Assembly (NCBI RefSeq): GCF_003334305.1
Contig: NZ_QOWS01000001.1
Direction: 5' to 3' (one strand)
Origin: Escherichia coli
GTDB taxonomy: Bacteria > Pseudomonadota > Gammaproteobacteria > Enterobacterales > Enterobacteriaceae
DNA length: 64,000 nt
Of this stretch, positions 9,878 through 43,700 are shown in pieces. Numbering within the stretch: position 1 is the stretch's first letter; each line of letters begins with the position of its first letter. Made by a program: the position numbers and the translations under genes. Under the pieces are notes generated by a model. It did no database searches. It had not been told where the DNA came from and worked only from the letters and a program-made list of their open reading frames with translations.

Positions 9878-11097
9878 AAATACTGGTCTACGGCATTAAC
9901 TACTCGCCGGAGTTAACCGGCATCGGCAAATACACCGGCGAGATGGTGGAATGGCTGGCGGCACAAGGTCATGAGGTGCGGGTCATTACCGCACCGCCTT
10001 ACTACCCGCAGTGGCAGGTGGGTGAGAACTATTCCGCCTGGCGGTACAAACGAGAAGAGGGGGCCGCCACGGTGTGGCGCTGCCCGCTGTACGTGCCAAA
10101 ACAGCCGAGCACCCTGAAACGCCTGTTGCATCTCAGCAGTTTTGCCGTCAGCAGTTTCTTTCCTCTGATGGCGCAACGTCGCTGGAAGCCGGATCGCATT
10201 ATTGGCGTGGTGCCAACGCTGTTTTGCACGCCGGGAATGCGCCTGCTGGCGAAACTCTCTGGCGCGCGTACCGTGCTGCATATTCAGGATTACGAAGTGG
10301 ACGCCATGCTGGGGCTGGGCCTTGCCGGAAAAGGCAAAGGCGGCAAAGTGGCACAGCTGGCGACGGCGTTCGAACGTAGCGGACTGCATAACGTCGATAA
10401 CGTCTCCACGATTTCGCGTTCGATGATGAATAAAGCCATCGAAAAAGGCGTGGCGGCAGAAAACGTCATCTTCTTCCCCAACTGGTCAGAAATTGCCCGT
10501 TTTCAGCATGTTGCAGATGCCGATGTTGATGCCCTTCGTAACCAGCTTGGCCTGCCGGATAACAAAAAAATCATTCTTTACTCCGGCAATATTGGTGAAA
10601 AGCAGGGGCTGGAAAACGTTATTGAAGCTGCCGATCGCCTGCGCGATGAACCGCTGATTTTTGCCATTGTCGGGCAGGGCGGCGGCAAAGCGCGGCTGGA
10701 AAAAATGGCGCAGCAGCGTGGACTGCGCAACATGCAATTTTTTCCGCTGCAATCGTATGACGCTTTACCCGCACTGCTGAAGATGGGCGATTGCCATCTG
10801 GTGGTGCAAAAACGCGGCGCGGCAGATGCCGTATTGCCGTCGAAACTGACCAATATTCTGGCGGTAGGCGGTAACGCGGTGATTACTGCAGAAGCCCACA
10901 CAGAACTGGGACAGCTTTGCGAAACCTTTCCGGGCATTGCGGTTTGCGTAGAGCCGGAATCGGTCGAGGCGCTGGTGGCGGGGATCCGTCAGGCGCTCCT
11001 GCTGCCCAAACACAACACGGTGGCACGTGAATATGCCGAACGCACTCTCGATAAAGAGAACGTGTTACGTCAATTTATAAATGATATTCGGGGATAA
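9874..11097 (+). CDS. wcaI: Colanic acid glycosyltransferase WcaI (GT4)
   Basis: 407 aa ORF, GT4-type C-terminal domain, synteny. Confidence 0.9.
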
Positions 11098-12640: not shown

Positions 12641-12728
12641 TGAATGCCGAACCGCGATGTAAATAACGACAAAAACAAAATTGGCCGCTTCGGTCAGGGC
12701 CAACTATTGCCTGAAAAAGGGTAACGAC

Positions 12729-33482: not shown

Positions 33483-33500
33483 TTTTTGAGCTTAAAGAAA

Positions 33501-33536
33501 GCGGGCAGGGTGGTCACACCGTGCCCGTTTTTTTTG
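33501..33536 (+). terminator. Rho-independent terminator after wzz
   Basis: GCGGGCAGGGTG-gtca-CACCGTGCCCG hairpin (one mismatch) followed by T8. Confidence 0.75.
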
Positions 33537-33572
33537 TCGGATGCGATGCCGGCGTATCTTATCCAGCTTACA
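33536..33572. repeat. Single REP-like unit downstream of wzz
   Basis: GTCGGATGCGATGCCGGCGTATCTTATCCAGCTTACA closely resembles the REP unit at 2055-2092. Confidence 0.6.
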
Positions 33573-33783: not shown

Positions 33784-34365
33784 TATGTACCTTCGCAAAA
33801 CGGGATTACTCACAGCGAACATGGCGTAATTTTGTACAAATCTGTTTTTTTTATCAGCAGATTATTTAGCAACCAGGCAAAAAATGTCATGCCTTTCTTC
33901 ATTTTTACTTATATATCAATTGATTATAATTAATTGGTTTGGTAAATGTTTAAGATGTGTATTATTTGAGTAATCCATTAATTAGTCGGCTTTTATATTT
34001 TTTTTCCCAGCATGCAACGCTATAATCTGCGAAGATTTTTTTGTGGAATGTGCAGTGTAGAGGCATGAGTCGTTTATCCCACCAGTCGCAACATAACGCC
34101 GTCGTCGTGTGCAAAGAGCTGTCAAGCCCGAACGCGCGCTGCTTCTCTGGCGGCGAATACGATGTCTCTTCTTATCTTTCCTCGTATCGTAAATGCTCCT
34201 TTCTGATGGTTGCTGGCATCGGTAAATCACTTGATTCGTTTTTTTTGATGGCGGTGAGAGCATGTGTTTTGCCCCGCGTAAATGAGAAGGTCCTGATGGT
34301 TACTCTGGCGGCAAATGTGGAAATTGTGGGGCGTTTCGTGGCCTGGTGAGGAACAGATACATATT

Positions 34366-34403
34366 AAAAGCAGAGATATGCCCTGAGACATATCTCTGCT
34401 TTT
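34366..34403. terminator. Strong hairpin (13-bp stem) flanked by A-run and T-run; candidate bidirectional terminator / sRNA 3' end
   Basis: AAAAGCAGAGATATG-ccctgaga-CATATCTCTGCTTTT read directly. Confidence 0.55.
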
Positions 34404-34533
34404 AGGTTTTCAGGATGCCCGTTCCGTAAGGATGGTTTTTGAGACCGCTGAGTGAAGGGGCTGCCGACAGTCTGAAGCGAAAGAGGGTGGCGTTTAGCCT
34501 GGAGCACTACGCATTTTGGTTGCGATAGCCAAT

Positions 34534-34545
34534 GGCGGTAGCGTA
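34534..34545 (+). promoter_or_regulatory. ops element (GGCGGTAGCGTA) upstream of manC of the his-linked cluster
   Basis: Exact GGCGGTAG core 89 nt upstream of manC start; JUMPstart-like flanks. Confidence 0.8.
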
Positions 34546-34622
34546 CCTGAAAAAGGCCATTCAACCCGTTGGTCGATTGATTGATAGTAAAATAAAACAA
34601 TTATTTATTTAAGGATTTCATT

Positions 34623-36038
34623 ATGTTACTTCCTGTAATTATGGCTGGTGGTACCGGCAGTCGTCTCTGGCCGATGTCACGCGAGCTTTATCCGAAACAG
34701 TTCCTCCGCCTGTTCGGGCAGAACTCCATGCTGCAGGAAACCATCACCCGACTCTCGGGTCTTGAAATCCATGAACCGATGGTCATCTGTAACGAAGAGC
34801 ATCGCTTCCTGGTGGCTGAACAGCTGCGCCAGCTAAATAAGCTGTCGAATAACATTATACTTGAGCCAGTCGGGCGCAACACCGCGCCGGCCATCGCCCT
34901 GGCGGCCCTTCAGGCCACCCGCTACGGTGACGACCCGCTGATGCTGGTTCTCGCCGCCGACCACATCATCAATAACCAGTCGGCCTTCCACGACGCTATC
35001 CGGGTCGCCGAGCAGTATGCTGATGAAGGTCATCTGGTCACCTTCGGTATCGTGCCGAATGCCCCGGAAACTGGCTACGGTTACATTCAGCGCGGCGTGG
35101 CGCTCACCGATAGTGCCCATTCCGCGTACCAGGTGGCCCGCTTTGTGGAGAAGCCGGATCGCGAGCGCGCCGAGGCTTACCTCGCCTCCGGGGAGTACTA
35201 CTGGAACAGCGGCATGTTTATGTTCCGCGCCAAGAAATACCTCATCGAGCTGGCCAAATACCGTCCGGATATCCTGGAAGCCTGCCAGGCTGCGGTGAAT
35301 GCCGCCGATAATGGCAGCGATTTCATCAATATCCCACATGATATTTTCTGCGAGTGCCCGGATGAGTCCGTGGACTACGCCGTTATGGAGAAAACCGCTG
35401 ATGCGGTGGTGGTCGGTCTCGATGCTGACTGGAGCGACGTTGGCTCCTGGTCCGCACTATGGGAGGTCAGCCCGAAAGACGAGCAGGGCAACGTCCTTAG
35501 TGGCGACGCGTGGGTACACAACAGCGAAAACTGCTACATCAACAGCGACGAGAAGCTAGTGGCGGCCATTGGCGTAGAGAATCTGGTGATTGTCAGCACT
35601 AAGGACGCCGTGCTGGTGATGAATCGCGAGCGTTCCCAGGACGTGAAGAAGGCGGTCGAGTTCCTCAAGCAGAACCAGCGCAGCGAGTACAAGCGCCACC
35701 GTGAGATTTACCGCCCCTGGGGCCGTTGCGACGTAGTGGTCCAGACCCCGCGCTTCAACGTCAACCGCATCACGGTGAAACCAGGCGGTGCCTTCTCGAT
35801 GCAGATGCACCACCATCGCGCCGAGCATTGGGTTATTCTCGCCGGCACCGGTCAGGTGACGGTCAACGGTAAGCAGTTCCTGCTGTCCGAGAACCAGTCC
35901 ACCTTTATTCCGATTGGCGCCGAGCACTGCCTGGAAAACCCTGGCTGTATTCCGCTGGAAGTGCTGGAGATCCAGTCGGGGGCGTACCTTGGCGAGGACG
36001 ACATTATTCGTATTAAAGACCAGTATGGTCGTTGCTAA
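34623..36038 (+). CDS. manC: Mannose-1-phosphate guanylyltransferase (O-antigen copy)
   Basis: 471 aa; [11 protein letters not shown] motif; GC-rich relative to flanking genes; paralogue of cpsB. Confidence 0.9.
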
Positions 36039-36061
36039 TTATTTTCGGGACAAGATGCAGA

Positions 36062-37438
36062 ATGACACAGTTAACTTGTTTTAAGGCTTATGACATCCGT
36101 GGTGAACTGGGTGAGGAACTGAACGAGGACATCGCCTACCGTATCGGTCGCGCCTACGGCGAATTTCTGAAACCCGGGAAGATAGTGGTGGGGGGCGATG
36201 TGCGCCTCACAAGCGAGTCGCTGAAGCTGGCGCTGGCCCGCGGGTTAATGGACGCCGGTACCGACGTGCTGGACATCGGCCTGAGCGGTACCGAAGAGAT
36301 TTACTTTGCCACCTTCCACCTTGGGGTAGATGGTGGCATCGAGGTGACCGCGAGCCACAATCCTATGAACTACAACGGCATGAAGCTGGTGCGCGAGAAT
36401 GCGAAGCCCATCAGCGGCGACACCGGCCTGCGGGATATCCAGCGCCTGGCGGAGGAAAACCAGTTCCCGCCAGTGGACCCGGCGCGTCGCGGGACCCTGA
36501 GCAAGATATCGGTACTGAAGGAGTATGTTGACCATCTGATGAGCTACGTGGACTTCTCGAACTTCACCCGTCCACTGAAGTTGGTGGTGAACTCCGGAAA
36601 CGGGGCTGCGGGGCACGTGATTGATGAGGTGGAGAAACGCTTCGCGGCGGCTGGGGTGCCGGTAACCTTTATCAAGGTGCATCACCAGCCGGATGGCCAT
36701 TTCCCTAACGGTATCCCGAATCCGCTGCTGCCGGAGTGCCGCCAGGATACCGCCGACGCGGTGCGCGAGCATCAGGCAGACATGGGGATTGCCTTTGACG
36801 GCGACTTCGATCGCTGCTTCCTGTTCGATGACGAAGCTTCGTTTATCGAGGGGTATTACATTGTCGGCCTGCTGGCTGAGGCGTTCCTGCAGAAGCAGCC
36901 GGGAGCGAAAATCATTCACGACCCGCGCTTGACGTGGAACACGGTAGACATCGTGACCCGCAACGGCGGCCAGCCGGTGATGTCGAAGACGGGGCATGCG
37001 TTCATCAAGGAGCGGATGCGTCAGGAAGACGCTATCTACGGCGGGGAGATGAGTGCGCACCATTACTTCCGCGATTTCGCCTACTGCGATAGCGGGATGA
37101 TCCCGTGGCTGCTGGTGGCGGAGCTGCTGTGTCTGAAGAACAGCTCGCTGAAATCGCTGGTGGCGGACCGCCAGAGGGCGTTCCCTGCGTCGGGAGAGAT
37201 CAACCGCAAGCTAAGGAATGCGGCTGAGGCGATCGCCCGCATCCGGGCGCAGTATGAGCCGGCGGCTGCACACATCGACACAACGGACGGGATCAGTATT
37301 GAATACCCTGAATGGCGCTTTAACCTGCGCACGTCTAACACCGAGCCGGTGGTGCGTCTGAACGTTGAGTCCAGAGCTGATGTGGCGCTTATGAATGAAA
37401 AAACGACCGAGCTGTTACACCTGTTAAGCGGGGAATAA
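36062..37438 (+). CDS. manB: Phosphomannomutase (O-antigen copy)
   Basis: 458 aa from [14 protein letters not shown]; TASHNP active-site motif; paralogue of cpsG. Confidence 0.9.
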
Positions 37439-37439
37439 G

Positions 37440-38234
37440 GTGAGAGATTTACTAACGACGATTTATCGTTATCGGGGATTTATCTGGAGCAGTGTTAAAC
37501 GTGATTTTCAGGCGCGCTATCAAACTAGTATGCTGGGCGCACTATGGCTCGTTTTACAACCGCTCTCTATGATTCTGGTCTATACCCTGGTTTTTTCCGA
37601 GGTGATGAAGGCAAGAATGCCCGATAATACCGGGTCGTTTGCCTATAGTATTTATCTCTGTTCCGGGGTACTGACCTGGGGATTATTTACTGAGATGCTG
37701 GATAAAGGTCAGAGCGTATTTATTAACAATGCTAATCTGATCAAGAAACTCAGTTTTCCGAAAATCTGTCTGCCGATCATCGTGACGTTATCGGCGGTGC
37801 TAAATTTCGCGATTATTTTCAGTCTGTTTCTAATTTTTATCATTGTCACCGGTAACTTCCCCGGCTGGCTCTTTCTCTCGGTGATACCGGTCCTGCTTTT
37901 GCAAATCCTGTTTGCCGGTGGGCTGGGGATGATCCTTGGTGTCATGAACGTCTTTTTCAGGGATGTGGGGCAACTGGTTGGCGTTGCGCTGCAATTCTGG
38001 TTTTGGTTCACACCCATTGTTTATGTACTGAATTCATTACCTGCATGGGCAAAAAATCTGATGATGTATAACCCGATGACTCGGATCATGCAATCTTATC
38101 AGTCCATCTTCGCCTATCATCTGGCCCCCAACTGGTATTCGCTATGGCCAGTATTGGCTCTCGCCATTATTTTCTGTGTCATCGGTTTCAGGATGTTCCG
38201 CAAGCATGCGGCGGATATGGTGGATGAATTATAA
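37440..38234 (+). CDS. wzm: O-polysaccharide ABC transporter permease Wzm
   Basis: 264 aa, ABC-2 type permease with about 6 TM helices; GTG start. Confidence 0.85.
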   Translation: MRDLLTTIYRYRGFIWSSVKRDFQARYQTSMLGALWLVLQPLSMILVYTLVFSEVMKARMPDNTGSFAYSIYLCSGVLTWGLFTEMLDKGQSVFINNANLIKKLSFPKICLPIIVTLSAVLNFAIIFSLFLIFIIVTGNFPGWLFLSVIPVLLLQILFAGGLGMILGVMNVFFRDVGQLVGVALQFWFWFTPIVYVLNSLPAWAKNLMMYNPMTRIMQSYQSIFAYHLAPNWYSLWPVLALAIIFCVIGFRMFRKHAADMVDEL

Positions 38235-39448
38235 TGAGTTATATCAGAGTAAATAATGTCGGTAAGGCGTATCGCCAGTATCACTCAAAGACCGGGAGAC
38301 TGATCGAATGGTTATCCCCTCTGAATACCAAACGCCATAACTTGAAATGGATCCTCCGCGAGATTAATTTCGAAGTCGCTCCGGGCGAGGCTGTCGGTAT
38401 TATCGGTATCAACGGTGCAGGCAAGAGTACCCTGCTTAAACTCATAACCGGGACGTCCAGGCCGACGACTGGAGAAATTGAAATCTCCGGACGTGTCGCT
38501 GCATTACTCGAATTGGGGATGGGGTTTCATTCTGATTTCACTGGCCGGCAGAATGTTTATATGTCTGGGCAACTGTTGGGGTTATCGTCAGAGAAAATAA
38601 CTGAACTGATGCCGCAAATTGAAGAGTTTGCTGAGATTGGGGACTATATCGATCAGCCTGTGCGCGTCTACTCCAGTGGGATGCAAGTTCGATTAGCTTT
38701 TAGTGTAGCGACGGCTATCCGTCCTGATGTGCTAATTATCGATGAGGCATTATCTGTTGGGGATGCATATTTCCAGCATAAAAGCTTTGAGCGTATTCGA
38801 AAATTTCGTCAGGAAGGGACCACGCTGTTGCTGGTATCCCATGATAAACAAGCGATCCAAAGCATTTGCGACCGGGCCATTTTATTGAATAAAGGCCAAA
38901 TTGAAATGGAAGGTGAACCTGAAGCAGTGATGGATTATTACAATGCGCTTCTGGCCGATAAACAAAATCAGTCCATTAAACAAGTTGAGCATAATGGTAA
39001 AACGCAAACTGTTTCAGGCACTGGTGAGGTGACTATCTCTGAGGTTCATCTTCTCGATGAACAGGGCAATGTGACTGAATTTGTTTCGGTAGGGCATCGT
39101 GTCAGCTTGCAGGTCAACGTTGAGGTCAAGGACGATATTCCTGAGCTTGTTGTCGGATATATGATTAAGGATCGACTTGGACAGCCGATTTTCGGGACCA
39201 ATACGTACCATCTCAATCAGACACTCACCTCCCTGAAAAAAGGAGAAAAGCGTTCGTTCTTATTTTCTTTCGATGCGAGATTGGGGGTTGGCTCCTATTC
39301 TGTCGCTGTCGCGTTGCATACTTCCAGTACGCACCTCGGCAAAAACTATGAATGGCGCGATCTGGCCGTGGTATTCAACGTCGTTAACACGGAACAACAA
39401 GAGTTTGTCGGCGTGTCCTGGTTGCCGCCTGAACTGGAGATTTCTTAA
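38234..39448 (+). CDS. wzt: O-polysaccharide ABC transporter ATP-binding protein Wzt with C-terminal extension (putative carbohydrate-binding domain)
   Basis: 404 aa; Walker A GINGAGKST, signature YSSGMQVRLAF, Walker B LIIDEA; about 150 aa C-terminal extra domain. Confidence 0.85.
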   Translation: MSYIRVNNVGKAYRQYHSKTGRLIEWLSPLNTKRHNLKWILREINFEVAPGEAVGIIGINGAGKSTLLKLITGTSRPTTGEIEISGRVAALLELGMGFHSDFTGRQNVYMSGQLLGLSSEKITELMPQIEEFAEIGDYIDQPVRVYSSGMQVRLAFSVATAIRPDVLIIDEALSVGDAYFQHKSFERIRKFRQEGTTLLLVSHDKQAIQSICDRAILLNKGQIEMEGEPEAVMDYYNALLADKQNQSIKQVEHNGKTQTVSGTGEVTISEVHLLDEQGNVTEFVSVGHRVSLQVNVEVKDDIPELVVGYMIKDRLGQPIFGTNTYHLNQTLTSLKKGEKRSFLFSFDARLGVGSYSVAVALHTSSTHLGKNYEWRDLAVVFNVVNTEQQEFVGVSWLPPELEIS

Positions 39449-40725
39449 TGGGTTCGTCGTTTTATCGTTCATTTGAAGAACGACACAGAGGTTCGGTTGA
39501 AGAAATCAAGCGCCGCTTGAGTTTTTATTTACCTTTTCTTGCAGGTCTGAAGGACATTTATCCTGATGGCGTGATTGCGGATATTGGTTGCGGACGTGGC
39601 GAATGGTTGGAGATCCTGACTGAAAATGGCATTGCGAACATCGGCGTCGATCTCGATGATGGCATGCTGGCGCGCGCCAGGGAGGCCGGACTGAATGTGC
39701 AGAAAATGGATTGTCTGCAGTTTCTGCAAAGTCAGGCGGATCAGAGCCTGATAGCGTTGACCGGTTTTCATATTGCTGAGCATTTGCCTTTTGAGGTCCT
39801 GCAGCAGCTCGTCATGCATACCCTACGGGTGCTGAAACCAGGTGGTTTGCTGATCCTCGAAACGCCGAACCCGGAGAATGTAAACGTCGGCACCTGTTCA
39901 TTTTATATGGATCCAACGCATAATCATCCTCTGCCACCGCCACTGCTTGAGTTTTTACCTATTCATTATGGTTTTAACAGAGCAATTACCGTTCGTCTGC
40001 AGGAAAAAGAGGTTCTTCAATCTCCGGATGCAGCCGTTAATTTGGTCGATGTACTCAAAGGGGTGAGCCCCGACTACAGCATCATTGCTCAGAAAGCAGC
40101 GCCAACAGATATTCTTGAACGCTTTGACACCCTGTTTACCCAGCAGTATGGTCTGACGCTGGATGCTCTGAGCAACCGTTACGATGCGATTTTGCGCCAA
40201 CAGTTTTCGTCCGTTGTCTCACGGCTGGAGACGTTGAACCAAACCTATATGCAACAGATAAGCCAAATGTCAGAGACTATTCAGACTTTGCAAGGTGAGG
40301 TTGACGATCTGAGTCATGTCATCGATCAGAACCATCAGCTTCATCAGCAAATGGCGGATTTACATAACAGTCGTTCATGGCGTATTACTCAACCACTACG
40401 CTGGTTGTCTTTGCAACGTCAATTATTACGTCAGGAAGGGGCTAAAGTGCGAGCCCGTAGGGCTGCGAAAAAAATATTGCGCAAAGGGATGGCGCTCTCG
40501 CTGGTCTTTTTCCATCGTTACCCTAAGTCTAAGGTTTATCTGTTTAAGGTTCTGAGAAAAACTGGCTGCTATACATTGCTACAACGTTTGTTCCAACGCG
40601 TAATGCTGGTGCAATCTGACACGATGATGATGCAGTCCAGAAGATATGATGTGGGTACTGAAGAAATGACAAGTCGCGCGATGAGTATTTATAACGAATT
40701 AAAAAATAAAAATACGGAGAAATAA
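39448..40725 (+). CDS. wbdD: Chain-terminating SAM-dependent methyltransferase WbdD (methyltransferase-only, O8 / Klebsiella O5 type) with C-terminal coiled coil
   Basis: 425 aa; SAM-binding motif DIGCGRGEW; no kinase domain; coiled-coil and basic amphipathic C-terminus. Confidence 0.7.
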   Translation: MGSSFYRSFEERHRGSVEEIKRRLSFYLPFLAGLKDIYPDGVIADIGCGRGEWLEILTENGIANIGVDLDDGMLARAREAGLNVQKMDCLQFLQSQADQSLIALTGFHIAEHLPFEVLQQLVMHTLRVLKPGGLLILETPNPENVNVGTCSFYMDPTHNHPLPPPLLEFLPIHYGFNRAITVRLQEKEVLQSPDAAVNLVDVLKGVSPDYSIIAQKAAPTDILERFDTLFTQQYGLTLDALSNRYDAILRQQFSSVVSRLETLNQTYMQQISQMSETIQTLQGEVDDLSHVIDQNHQLHQQMADLHNSRSWRITQPLRWLSLQRQLLRQEGAKVRARRAAKKILRKGMALSLVFFHRYPKSKVYLFKVLRKTGCYTLLQRLFQRVMLVQSDTMMMQSRRYDVGTEEMTSRAMSIYNELKNKNTEK

Positions 40726-40727
40726 CG

Positions 40728-43700
40728 ATGCGTATTGTCATAGATTTACAAGGCGCACAGACGGAAAGCCGCTTTCGTGGCATCGGTCGTTATAGTATCG
40801 CAATCGCCAGAGGCATAATCAGAAATAACAGCCGGCATGAGATTTTCATCGCGCTATCCGCCATGCTGGATGAGTCGATTGCGGATATTAAGGCGCAATT
40901 TGCCGATCTCCTGCCGGCAGAAAATATAGTCGTATGGCATGCCGTAGGCCCTGTTCGTGCGATGGACCAAGGTAATGAATGGCGTCGGGAGAGCGCAGAA
41001 CTGATTCGGGAAGCGTTTCTTGAATCATTGTGTCCAGATGTCGTTTTCATTACGAGCTTGTTTGAAGGTCATGTCGACGATGCGGCTACATCGGTACACA
41101 AATTTAGTCGTCAGTATAAAGTAGCCGTACTGCACCACGATCTTATCCCCCTCGTGCAGGCGGAAACCTATCTGCAGGACGATGTATACAAACCCTACTA
41201 CTTACAGAAAGTTGAGTGGTTAAAAAACGCTGACCTTTTGTTGACTAACTCTGCTTATACCGCACAGGAAGCGATCGAGCATCTGCATTTACAGGGCGAT
41301 CATGTGCAGAATATTGCAGCCGCAGTCGATTCTCAGTTTTGTATGGCGGAGGTGACAGCGAGCGAAAAAGAGACCGTCCTTGGCCATTACGGTATTCAGC
41401 GCGAGTTCATGTTGTATGCGCCCGGAGGATTTGACTCAAGGAAAAACTTTAAACGGTTGATTGAGGCCTATGCCGGGCTCAGTGATGCCTTACGTCGCAG
41501 TCATCAACTGGTTATCGTCAGTAAGCTTTCCATCGGTGATCGTCAGTATCTGGAATCCCTTGCGTCAGGTAATGGTTTACAGCAAGGCGAACTGGTACTC
41601 ACTGGTTATGTGCCGGAAGATGAGCTGATCCAGCTCTATCGCCTATGTAAGCTGTTCATCTTTGCTTCACTACATGAAGGTTTTGGGTTGCCGGTTCTGG
41701 AAGCAATGTCGTGCGGTGCGCCGGTGATTGGCTCAAATGTCACCAGTATTCCTGAAGTCATCGGTAATCCTGAGGCATTATTCGACCCGTATTCTGTCTC
41801 TTCCATGAGGGATAAGATCGCGCAATGTTTGACTGATGATACCTTCCTCGCGCGTCTGAAAGAAATGGCGCAGCAGCAAGCGCGTAATTTCTCTTGGGAT
41901 AAAGCTGCGGTGACTGCTCTGGAGGCTTTCGAAAAGATCGCGGTAGAAGACACCGGTACTGCGCAGGTTTTGCCTGAAGCTTTGATTCAGAAGATCCTTG
42001 CTATCACACAAGGGCAGCCAGATGACCGCGATCTGCGCTTGTGCGCAACGGCCATTGATTACAATCTGAAAACGGCAGAACTTTATCAAATCGACGATAA
42101 ATCGCTGAACTGGCGTGTGGAAGGCCCATTCGATAGCTCATATAGTCTGGCGTTGGTCAACCGCGAATTTGCCCGGGCACTCTCAGCCGATGGTGTAGAG
42201 GTCTTATTGCATTCCACTGAAGGACCGGGTGATTTTGCCCCAGATGCCTCCTTTATGGCACAGTCGGAAAATAGTGATCTTCTGGCATTTTATAATCAAT
42301 GTCAGACCCGCAAGAGTAACGAAAAGATAGATATTCTTAGCAGAAATATCTATCCACCGCGGGTTACCAAAATGGATGCCAAAGTAAAATTCCTTCATTG
42401 TTATGCTTGGGAAGAAACGGGCTTTCCGCAACCGTGGATCAATGAATTTAATCGGGAACTTGACGGAGTGCTGTGTACTTCGGAACATGTTCGTAAAATA
42501 TTGATTGATAACGGACTGAATGTGCCCGCATTTGTTGTTGGCAATGGCTGTGACCATTGGCTCAATATCCCAGCCGAGACGACAAAAGATGTGGATCACG
42601 GAACATTCCGTTTCCTGCACGTCTCTTCTTGTTTCCCACGCAAAGGGATACAGGCAATGCTTCAGGCTTGGGGGAAGGCGTTCACTCGTCGTGACAATGT
42701 TATCTTAATCATTAAGACTTTTAACAATCCGCACAATGAAATTGACGCATGGCTGGCTCAGGCCCAGGCTCAATTCATAGACTATCCCAAAGTTGAAGTG
42801 ATCAAAGAGGATATATCAGCCACCGAGCTTAAAGGGCTTTATGAAAGCTGTGATGTTTTGGTTGCTCCAGGTTGCGCTGAAGGCTTTGGTTTACCTATTG
42901 CTGAAGCAATGCTGAGTGGGCTACCGGCTATCGTCACCAATTGGAGCGGGCAACTTGATTTTGTTAATTCACAAAATTCATGGCTGGTTGACTATCAGTT
43001 CACTCGGGTAAAAACGCACTTTGGTCTGTTTTCCTCAGCCTGGGCCAGTGTGGATATTGACAACTTAACAGATGCATTAAAAGCGGCAGCCTCAACCGAT
43101 AAATCAGTGCTGCGTGACATGGCCAATGCTGGTCGCGAGCTTCTTCTGCAGCAGTTTACCTGGAAAGCGGTGGCTGATCGTTCTTGCCAGGCGGTCAAGA
43201 CTCTGCGTGCGCATATTGATATTGCACAGCATCGGGCGCGCATTGGCTGGTTGACGACCTGGAACACGAAATGTGGGATCGCAACCTATTCCCAGCATCT
43301 GGTGGAAAGCGCACCTCATGGCGCGGATGTTGTTTTTGCTCCCCAGGTCAGCGCTGGCGATCTTGTGTGTGCAGACGAAGAGTTTGTACTTCGCAACTGG
43401 ATTGTAGGTAAAGAGAGCAACTATCTGGAAAACCTCCAGCCACACATTGATGCTCTGAAACTCGATGTCATTGTGATCCAATTCAACTATGGATTCTTTA
43501 ATCATCGAGAACTGTCGGTGTTTATTCGTCGCCAGCATGACGCCGGTCGTTCAGTTGTTATGACGATGCACTCAACTGTGGATCCGCTGGAAAAAGAGCC
43601 GAGCTGGAATTTCCGTCTTGCTGAAATGAAAGAGGCGCTGGCACTTTGCGACCGGTTGTTGGTGCATTCGATTGCCGATATGAACCGCCTTAAAGATTTA

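Follow-up and report, generated by a model that had tools for sequence, protein, structure and literature searches.

An ops element ending in TA in the leader of the Escherichia coli O8 polymannan operon: a probable RfaH loading site with a tolerated terminal base

The question raised by this locus is whether an ops element that ends in TA can serve as a loading site for RfaH, and whether its terminal A has any regulatory meaning. The DNA analysed here (the window) is a stretch of 64,000 nucleotides from E. coli contig NZ_QOWS01000001.1. An earlier note, made from the letters of the window, reported a perfect 8-nt ops core 89 nt before manC, ending in TA. This is confirmed: the ops 12-mer GGCGGTAGCGTA lies at 34534-34545 on the + strand, where the window letters are caatGGCGGTAGCGTAcctg, with G1 at 34534, the core bases G1 to G8 intact, T11 at 34544 and A12 at 34545. 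The note gave an ops consensus ending in TG, in agreement with Zuber et al. (2018; PMC5995543), where TG at positions 11-12 is common to all validated K-12 RfaH targets.

The window carries the colanic acid genes wzc to wcaM (18-21110), a gne-like epimerase gene and then galF (22506-23399), a six-gene cluster of the O46/O134 Wzx/Wzy family (23707-29419), and gnd, ugd and wzzB (to 33482). A 1.1-kb non-coding spacer follows, and then the O8 polymannan operon (34623-46703, + strand), with the his operon on the minus strand after wbdC. The ORFs of the polymannan operon are manC, manB (rfbK), wzm, wzt, a wbdD-like methyltransferase, wbdA (1213 aa), a wbdB-like GT4 and wbdC. The O8-family wzm/wzt and wbdC names are taken from the RefSeq annotation of strain H15 (NZ_CP010178), to which a 29-kb stretch of the window is 99.9% identical. 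The O8 WbdA and the location of the cluster between gnd and hisI are described in a review (PMC7685785); this location is normal for Klebsiella, and the cluster corresponds to Klebsiella O5. The operon is here taken as a Klebsiella O5-derived or O5-type polymannan operon.

The galF-proximal cluster encodes an ATP-grasp amidoligase, Wzx, a GT2, Wzy, a GlcNAc transferase and a further GT2, and the strain has both clusters. Some O8 strains are known to have, at the galF-proximal site, a group 4 (K40-like) antigen cluster. The earlier note proposed that two ops elements about 11 kb apart serve different polysaccharide clusters, and the layout bears this out. JUMPstart/ops elements are found at 23658-23696 and at 34509-34545, the G1 of the manC leader ops being 10,849 nt (10.85 kb) downstream of the first leader ops, GGCGGTAGCTTG (23685-23696). 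The first leads into the O46/O134-family Wzx/Wzy cluster after galF, and the second, after wzzB, into the ABC-transporter polymannan cluster of O8.

The 34534 site has most of the sequence features of an ops element. It lies outside coding DNA, in a 5′ leader that precedes a long operon, and GGCGGTAGCGTA is on the non-template strand relative to manC. The manC ATG is at 34623, which places G1 89 nt upstream of it and leaves 77 nt between A12 and the ATG; validated ops sites in the uropathogenic strain CFT073 lie 40-634 nt before the first gene (PMC9765446). The core GGCGGTAG is exact at 34534-34541, and includes the RfaH-contacting bases G4, G5, T6 and A7 and the C3:G8 pair, the roles of which are described in PMC5995543. 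Position 11 is T, as expected for the U11 pause. The core, T11, the strand and the position before a long operon are all as expected, and so support a functional ops. The exception is position 12, where the G of the validated K-12 targets is replaced by A (34545). The consensus elemental pause G-10 Y-1 G+1 is therefore incomplete in the manC leader, with G2 and T11 present and A at +1. The remaining 77 nt of the leader (34546-34622, + strand) are strongly conserved between O8- and O9-type leaders, and include AAGGA, a Shine-Dalgarno-like sequence that precedes the manC ATG by 8 nt.

The ops element is the 3′ half of a divergent and complete JUMPstart (34509-34545, + strand; Rfam RF01707), the 5′ half of which carries a stem-loop. 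The Rfam model covers the element end to end (model 1-38/38) with the 5-bp stem kept. Its score was 20.7 bits (E = 0.12 in a scan of all 4,227 Rfam families), which falls short of the gathering score of 35. The stem-loop, TTGGT-TGCGATA-GCCAA (34516-34532, + strand), is located immediately 5′ of the ops, and its five pairs match the Rfam consensus stem. The galF-proximal JUMPstart (23658-23696, + strand), in the leader of the 23707-29419 cluster, has the same arrangement of a stem-loop followed by an ops in an O-antigen leader. However, it scores 56.7 bits, above the gathering score, it ends in TG, and it has CT at ops positions 9-10 where the second JUMPstart has CG. The outer stem pair is T-A in the second element and C-G in the first (CTGGT...GCCAG), which is one compensatory change. 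The JUMPstart of the galF-proximal O-antigen type is reportedly the element of Hobbs and Reeves 1994. We note that the window and H15 share a haplotype without 8 bp, GGAGCGCG, at about 34506, 5′ of the second JUMPstart; other O8-type leaders have it. GGAGCGCG is one copy of a short direct repeat.

The sub-threshold Rfam score could be taken to mean that the second JUMPstart is a relic without function or a match that arose by chance, and that the O8 operon is RfaH-independent. The frequency of the core bears on this. The window has five copies of the 8-mer GGCGGTAG, all on the + strand, where 1.27 would be expected, and one of 100 shuffles reached five. T at position 11 is confined to the two leader copies. 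The other three are intragenic, on the + strand and the coding strand, at 1373-1380 (wzc), 10860-10867 (wcaI) and 62989-62996 (a 157-aa SbmC-like ORF), and are probably chance matches. That such matches do arise lends something to the reading as a chance match, as does the finding that intragenic ops matches in CFT073 give no RfaH ChIP signal, binding being seen at leader sites only. On the other hand, the manC leader site has the position and strand of validated sites, and the 8-mer would fall by chance within any one leader of about 150 nt with a probability of roughly 0.002 (150/4^8).

Conservation provides a further argument. An alignment of 12 sequences shows variation within the second JUMPstart at one loop base and at position 12 only, and both flanks diverge at once. 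Between E. coli O8- and O9-type leaders the spacer just upstream is about 80-85% identical, and the element is intact. The 37-nt element, which contains CGCATTTTGGTTGCGATAGCCAATGGCGGTAGCGT, is also found before Klebsiella-type O1/O2 rfb clusters in E. coli and in four Raoultella and two Enterobacter species as well as a Klebsiella-context contig, with flanks that are 80-85% identical or cannot be aligned, and the same element heads a plasmid-borne rml-wzm-wzt cluster. In the Klebsiella-type rfb leaders (O1/O2 galactan and related), including those of Raoultella and Enterobacter, the element is orthologous, sharing the 36 nt CGCATTTTGGTTGCGATAGCCAATGGCGGTAGCGT, and it heads ABC-transporter-dependent O-antigen clusters near the his region, as here. 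These leaders differ from the manC leader in having G12 throughout, in their downstream sequence, and in having wzm or rmlB rather than manC as the first gene.

A conserved element between diverging flanks indicates purifying selection, which would argue that the second JUMPstart has a function. Across species, the bases contacted by RfaH and the stem-loop show perfect conservation, in contrast to the adjoining non-coding DNA, which diverges, and we regard the suggestion of a relic or chance match as most improbable. RfaH very probably loads onto the O8 operon at the second JUMPstart, and the operon at 34623-46703 is presumed to be the target of RfaH loaded at the 34534 ops.

As a separate observation, an O-antigen-like cluster of the form rmlBADC-GT2-wzm-wzt-GT99 is found on five E. 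coli plasmids and on one chromosome, where the flanks are plasmid-derived. It lies directly behind a JUMPstart of the same family, with G12, and is IS-flanked, for example in plasmid p503-IncFIB (NZ_CP090307, 7001-7030).

The leader upstream of the JUMPstart has also been analysed. About 130 nt upstream of the ops there is a terminator-like hairpin (34366-34403, + strand), with a T-run after its 11-bp stem; a comparison of O8- and O9-type leaders shows a conserved stem and a variable loop. The operon promoter would therefore be located between 34404 and 34508, unless the operon is transcribed by read-through. Neither the built-in scan nor a relaxed hexamer scan gave a credible sigma-70-like site on the + strand of 34340-34545, a result that would also suit a relic. 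Since no promoter was located between the hairpin and the ops, transcription across the second JUMPstart is assumed.

Further upstream, many RefSeq genomes annotate a 94-aa "hypothetical protein" (34065-34349). We reject this as a gene, because the three codon positions share the differences about evenly (17/19/19 and 17/21/16 in comparisons with the HS and Klebsiella-context homologues) and because the copy in E. coli HS has stops and a frameshift.

The mechanism can be outlined as follows. RNA polymerase would transcribe the leader, and the non-template strand would fold into the small ops hairpin, in which C3:G8 closes G4-G5-T6-A7; all of these bases are intact at the 34534 site. RfaH would bind this hairpin and refold, and would then ride with the polymerase through the operon of about 12 kb, suppressing Rho/H-NS-dependent premature termination and aiding ribosome loading. 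A12 replaces the +1 G of the consensus pause. In the ops-paused complex G12 lies in the CRE pocket of RNA polymerase (PMC11001881), and because this is the base that flips into the pocket, A12 would be expected to weaken and shorten the U11 pause.

This leads to an alternative in which the ops is functional and A12 is a quantitative tuning allele: a weaker U11 pause would give fewer RfaH-loaded polymerases, and expression that is two-fold or more lower, or more conditional, than behind a G12 leader. Published data that bear on this concern the substitution G12C (Zuber et al., 2018; PMC5995543). In vitro G12C abolished the U11 pause, with 0.55% paused RNA at U11 compared with 11.3% for the wild type, and it reduced the delay that RfaH causes at positions 12/13 from 5.8-fold to 3.4-fold. 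In vivo the effect of RfaH was 20.0-fold compared with 35.9-fold for the wild type, and reporter output in the presence of RfaH was 25% of the wild-type 100%. All of these changes are in the direction that tuning requires, the cost of G12C being roughly two-fold. RfaH recruitment was nevertheless kept, and RfaH loading is also possible at C9 and G10 (PMC5995543). It should be noted that the published substitution is G12C while the change in the manC leader is G to A, a purine-to-purine change, which may be milder. With recruitment kept and a 20-fold effect remaining out of 36-fold, position 12 is largely non-essential, a finding which the earlier note had itself named as one that would count against its proposal that the terminal base may tune RfaH pausing or recruitment.

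RNA folding gives a small additional point in favour of tuning. Folding of the leader with A12 and with G12 differs only in that G12 adds one G-C pair to a small hairpin just after the ops; this hairpin is not conserved outside O8/O9 leaders. A compensating TG at ops positions 15-16 (within CCTG) was also considered, and is ruled out: relatives with G12 have CCTG as well, and the -10 base would be T6.

Natural sites bound by RfaH also bear on the terminal A. Hustmyer et al. (2022; PMC9765446, data set S2) list eight RfaH-ChIP-positive leader ops sites in uropathogenic E. coli CFT073, and two of the eight end in TA: c1882, with GGCGGTAGCGTA, and kpsM, with GGCGGTAGCATA. It follows that G12 is not a defining feature of ops, and the earlier note's view of the terminal A as a notable departure from the consensus does not hold, the more so as A12 is common among genomes (see below). 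The c1882 gene belongs to a putative type VI secretion locus, and its 5′ leader has the exact 12-mer of the manC leader on the non-template strand. This is a different kind of operon, with the ops 313 nt from the first gene, and the RfaH binding was seen by ChIP-seq in an hns stpA double mutant, the locus being silent in the wild type. In wild-type CFT073 the kps site has the highest RfaH fold enrichment, 70.9, compared with 30.6 at wzx, 19.0 at rfaQ and 5.7 at hly (PMC9765446), although the kps value also reflects heavy transcription and is not proof of equal loading per polymerase. RfaH read-through from the kps ops has been reported to be essential for expression of region 2 (PMC8960920). 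TA-ending sites can thus load RfaH strongly in vivo, which is difficult to reconcile with a large effect of A12.

The kps site is also one of the closest known parallels to the manC leader. A recombineering arm given in two papers, TTGGTAGCTGTTAAGCCAAGGGCGGTAGCGTACCTGAAGA, shows that the region 3 JUMPstart of K1-type kps clusters has the same 12-mer, GGCGGTAGCGTA. In the leader of the group 2 capsule genes kpsMT (region 3), both the 12-mer and the CCTGAA that follows it are identical in K1-type strains such as IAI39, and the ops lies in a leader, as at manC, a short way ahead of an ABC-transporter gene belonging to a polysaccharide cluster. The 40-mer TTGGTAGCTGTTAAGCCAAGGGCGGTAGCGTACCTGAAGA matches 1,221 of 5,426 E. 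coli genomes, 1,122 of them in the band of ≥99% identity. The two leaders differ in the 5′ half of the JUMPstart (TTGGTAGCTGTTAAGCCAAG at kpsMT and TTGGTTGCGATAGCCAAT at manC), in chromosomal locus, and in the distance from the ops to the first gene, which is 28 nt at kpsMT (in IAI39 the 40-mer ends 28 nt before a kpsM-like permease gene) and 77 nt at manC. At kpsMT the promoter is known (PR3, 741 bp upstream).

The distribution of the position 12 allele has been analysed in complete E. coli genomes. Of the 5,426 genomes, 240 contain the exact A12 32-mer and 224 the O9-type 32-mer with G12. A12 with the same manC leader is also found in 24 metagenome contigs, one of which combines upstream ugd and uge of Klebsiella type (96% identity) with downstream O8/O5 genes (99%), so that in this one contig the A12 allele exists in a Klebsiella-like context. 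Species-representative genomes gave G12 versions only, so the evidence for a source of A12 outside E. coli is that one Klebsiella-context contig. Every relative of the second JUMPstart outside the manC leader has G12, and A12 is therefore derived, a point in favour of the tuning reading.

The allele does not follow the serotype. The O8 wzm-wzt genes are found in 308 genomes and those of O9 in 211, and comparison with the allele counts shows that allele and serotype are not in one-to-one correspondence. This was pursued with a synthetic query consisting of the A12 32-mer and 5.2 kb of O8 genes, from which 60 of the 380 matching genomes were sampled at even steps. O8 was joined to A12 in 30 of the 60 rows; in three more O8 occurred with the A12 32-mer elsewhere in the record, in 11 O8 occurred without the 32-mer, and in six A12 occurred without O8 genes, while the remaining 10 matched part of the O8 segment only. 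Direct inspection of loci showed G12 with O8 in UK_Dog_Liverpool, and A12 with O9-family clusters in Ec1117 and isolate 162. All four combinations of A12 or G12 with O8 or O9 clusters therefore exist, and the idea that A12 is specific to serotype O8 is ruled out.

As judged from these sequences, the leader/manC-manB module and the serotype-specific wzm-to-wbdA module of O8 and O9 have recombined in both directions. The four combinations would be the pattern expected of freely recombining and roughly equivalent leader alleles, and exchange in both directions fits near-neutral alleles better than tuning matched to serotype. Together with the strength of the kps site, the recombination pattern argues against a large effect of A12. 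An allele that lowers expression two-fold or more is thus doubtful, while a modest kinetic tuning by A12 is possible.

On the basis of these observations, GGCGGTAGCGTA probably forms the ops half of a JUMPstart that is functional in the untranslated leader of the O8 operon, with an A12 that is tolerated, common, and still able to load RfaH. The sequence, its conservation, the frequencies of the alleles and published binding of RfaH to other ops sites ending in TA are established; we infer both the action of RfaH at this site and the size of any A12 effect. Literature searches on RfaH or JUMPstart in O8/O9 polymannan clusters gave nothing specific to them. A12 is a known functional variant of ops and not a special regulatory device, and the site is an ordinary member of a well-known class. 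It marks the probable entry point of RfaH for the O8 polymannan operon, and through recombination for some O9 operons as well, and has little import beyond annotation.

The wider point concerns motif searches. TA-ending ops elements are widespread: of 5,426 genomes, about 240 have one at the manC leader and about 1,100 have one at kps. A search that insists on GGCGGTAGnnTG will therefore overlook real RfaH sites. It is also worth adding that O8 and O9 clusters each occur with either leader allele, A12 or G12, which provides a cheap natural test of the contribution of the +1 G of the ops pause in vivo, for which the expected effect is modest. We suggest, tentatively and as something that may well prove wrong, that these leaders are a naturally occurring allelic series for what the +1 G, in the CRE pocket, contributes to RfaH loading, in which A12 loads RfaH on a smaller fraction of polymerases and gives lower or more heterogeneous O8/O9 expression; if so, the four natural combinations of leader and cluster would allow a direct test.

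A related case is E. coli Ec300, for which an RfaH-dependent polysaccharide is reported; it is encoded in a Klebsiella-like galF-his region where the motif RGGCGGTAGYNT gave no convincing JUMPstart (PMC3101779). The second JUMPstart described here would match that motif, and the Ec300 region may merit re-examination.

Some other features of the window can be noted. The wzy of H15 is frameshifted according to RefSeq, and the window differs from it by homopolymer indels at 26739-26850; at this locus the window has an intact 379-aa ORF (26759-27898), and the H15 "pseudogene" may be an assembly artefact. Rfam matches include an algC RNA motif (12675-12724, 77.3 bits) before the colanic-acid manB/cpsG ORF, the his operon leader (53819-53942, - strand, 131.6 bits), the sRNA STnc240 (56681-56755, 68.2 bits), and a sub-threshold match to the REP-like naRNA4 (33499-33568) just after wzzB.
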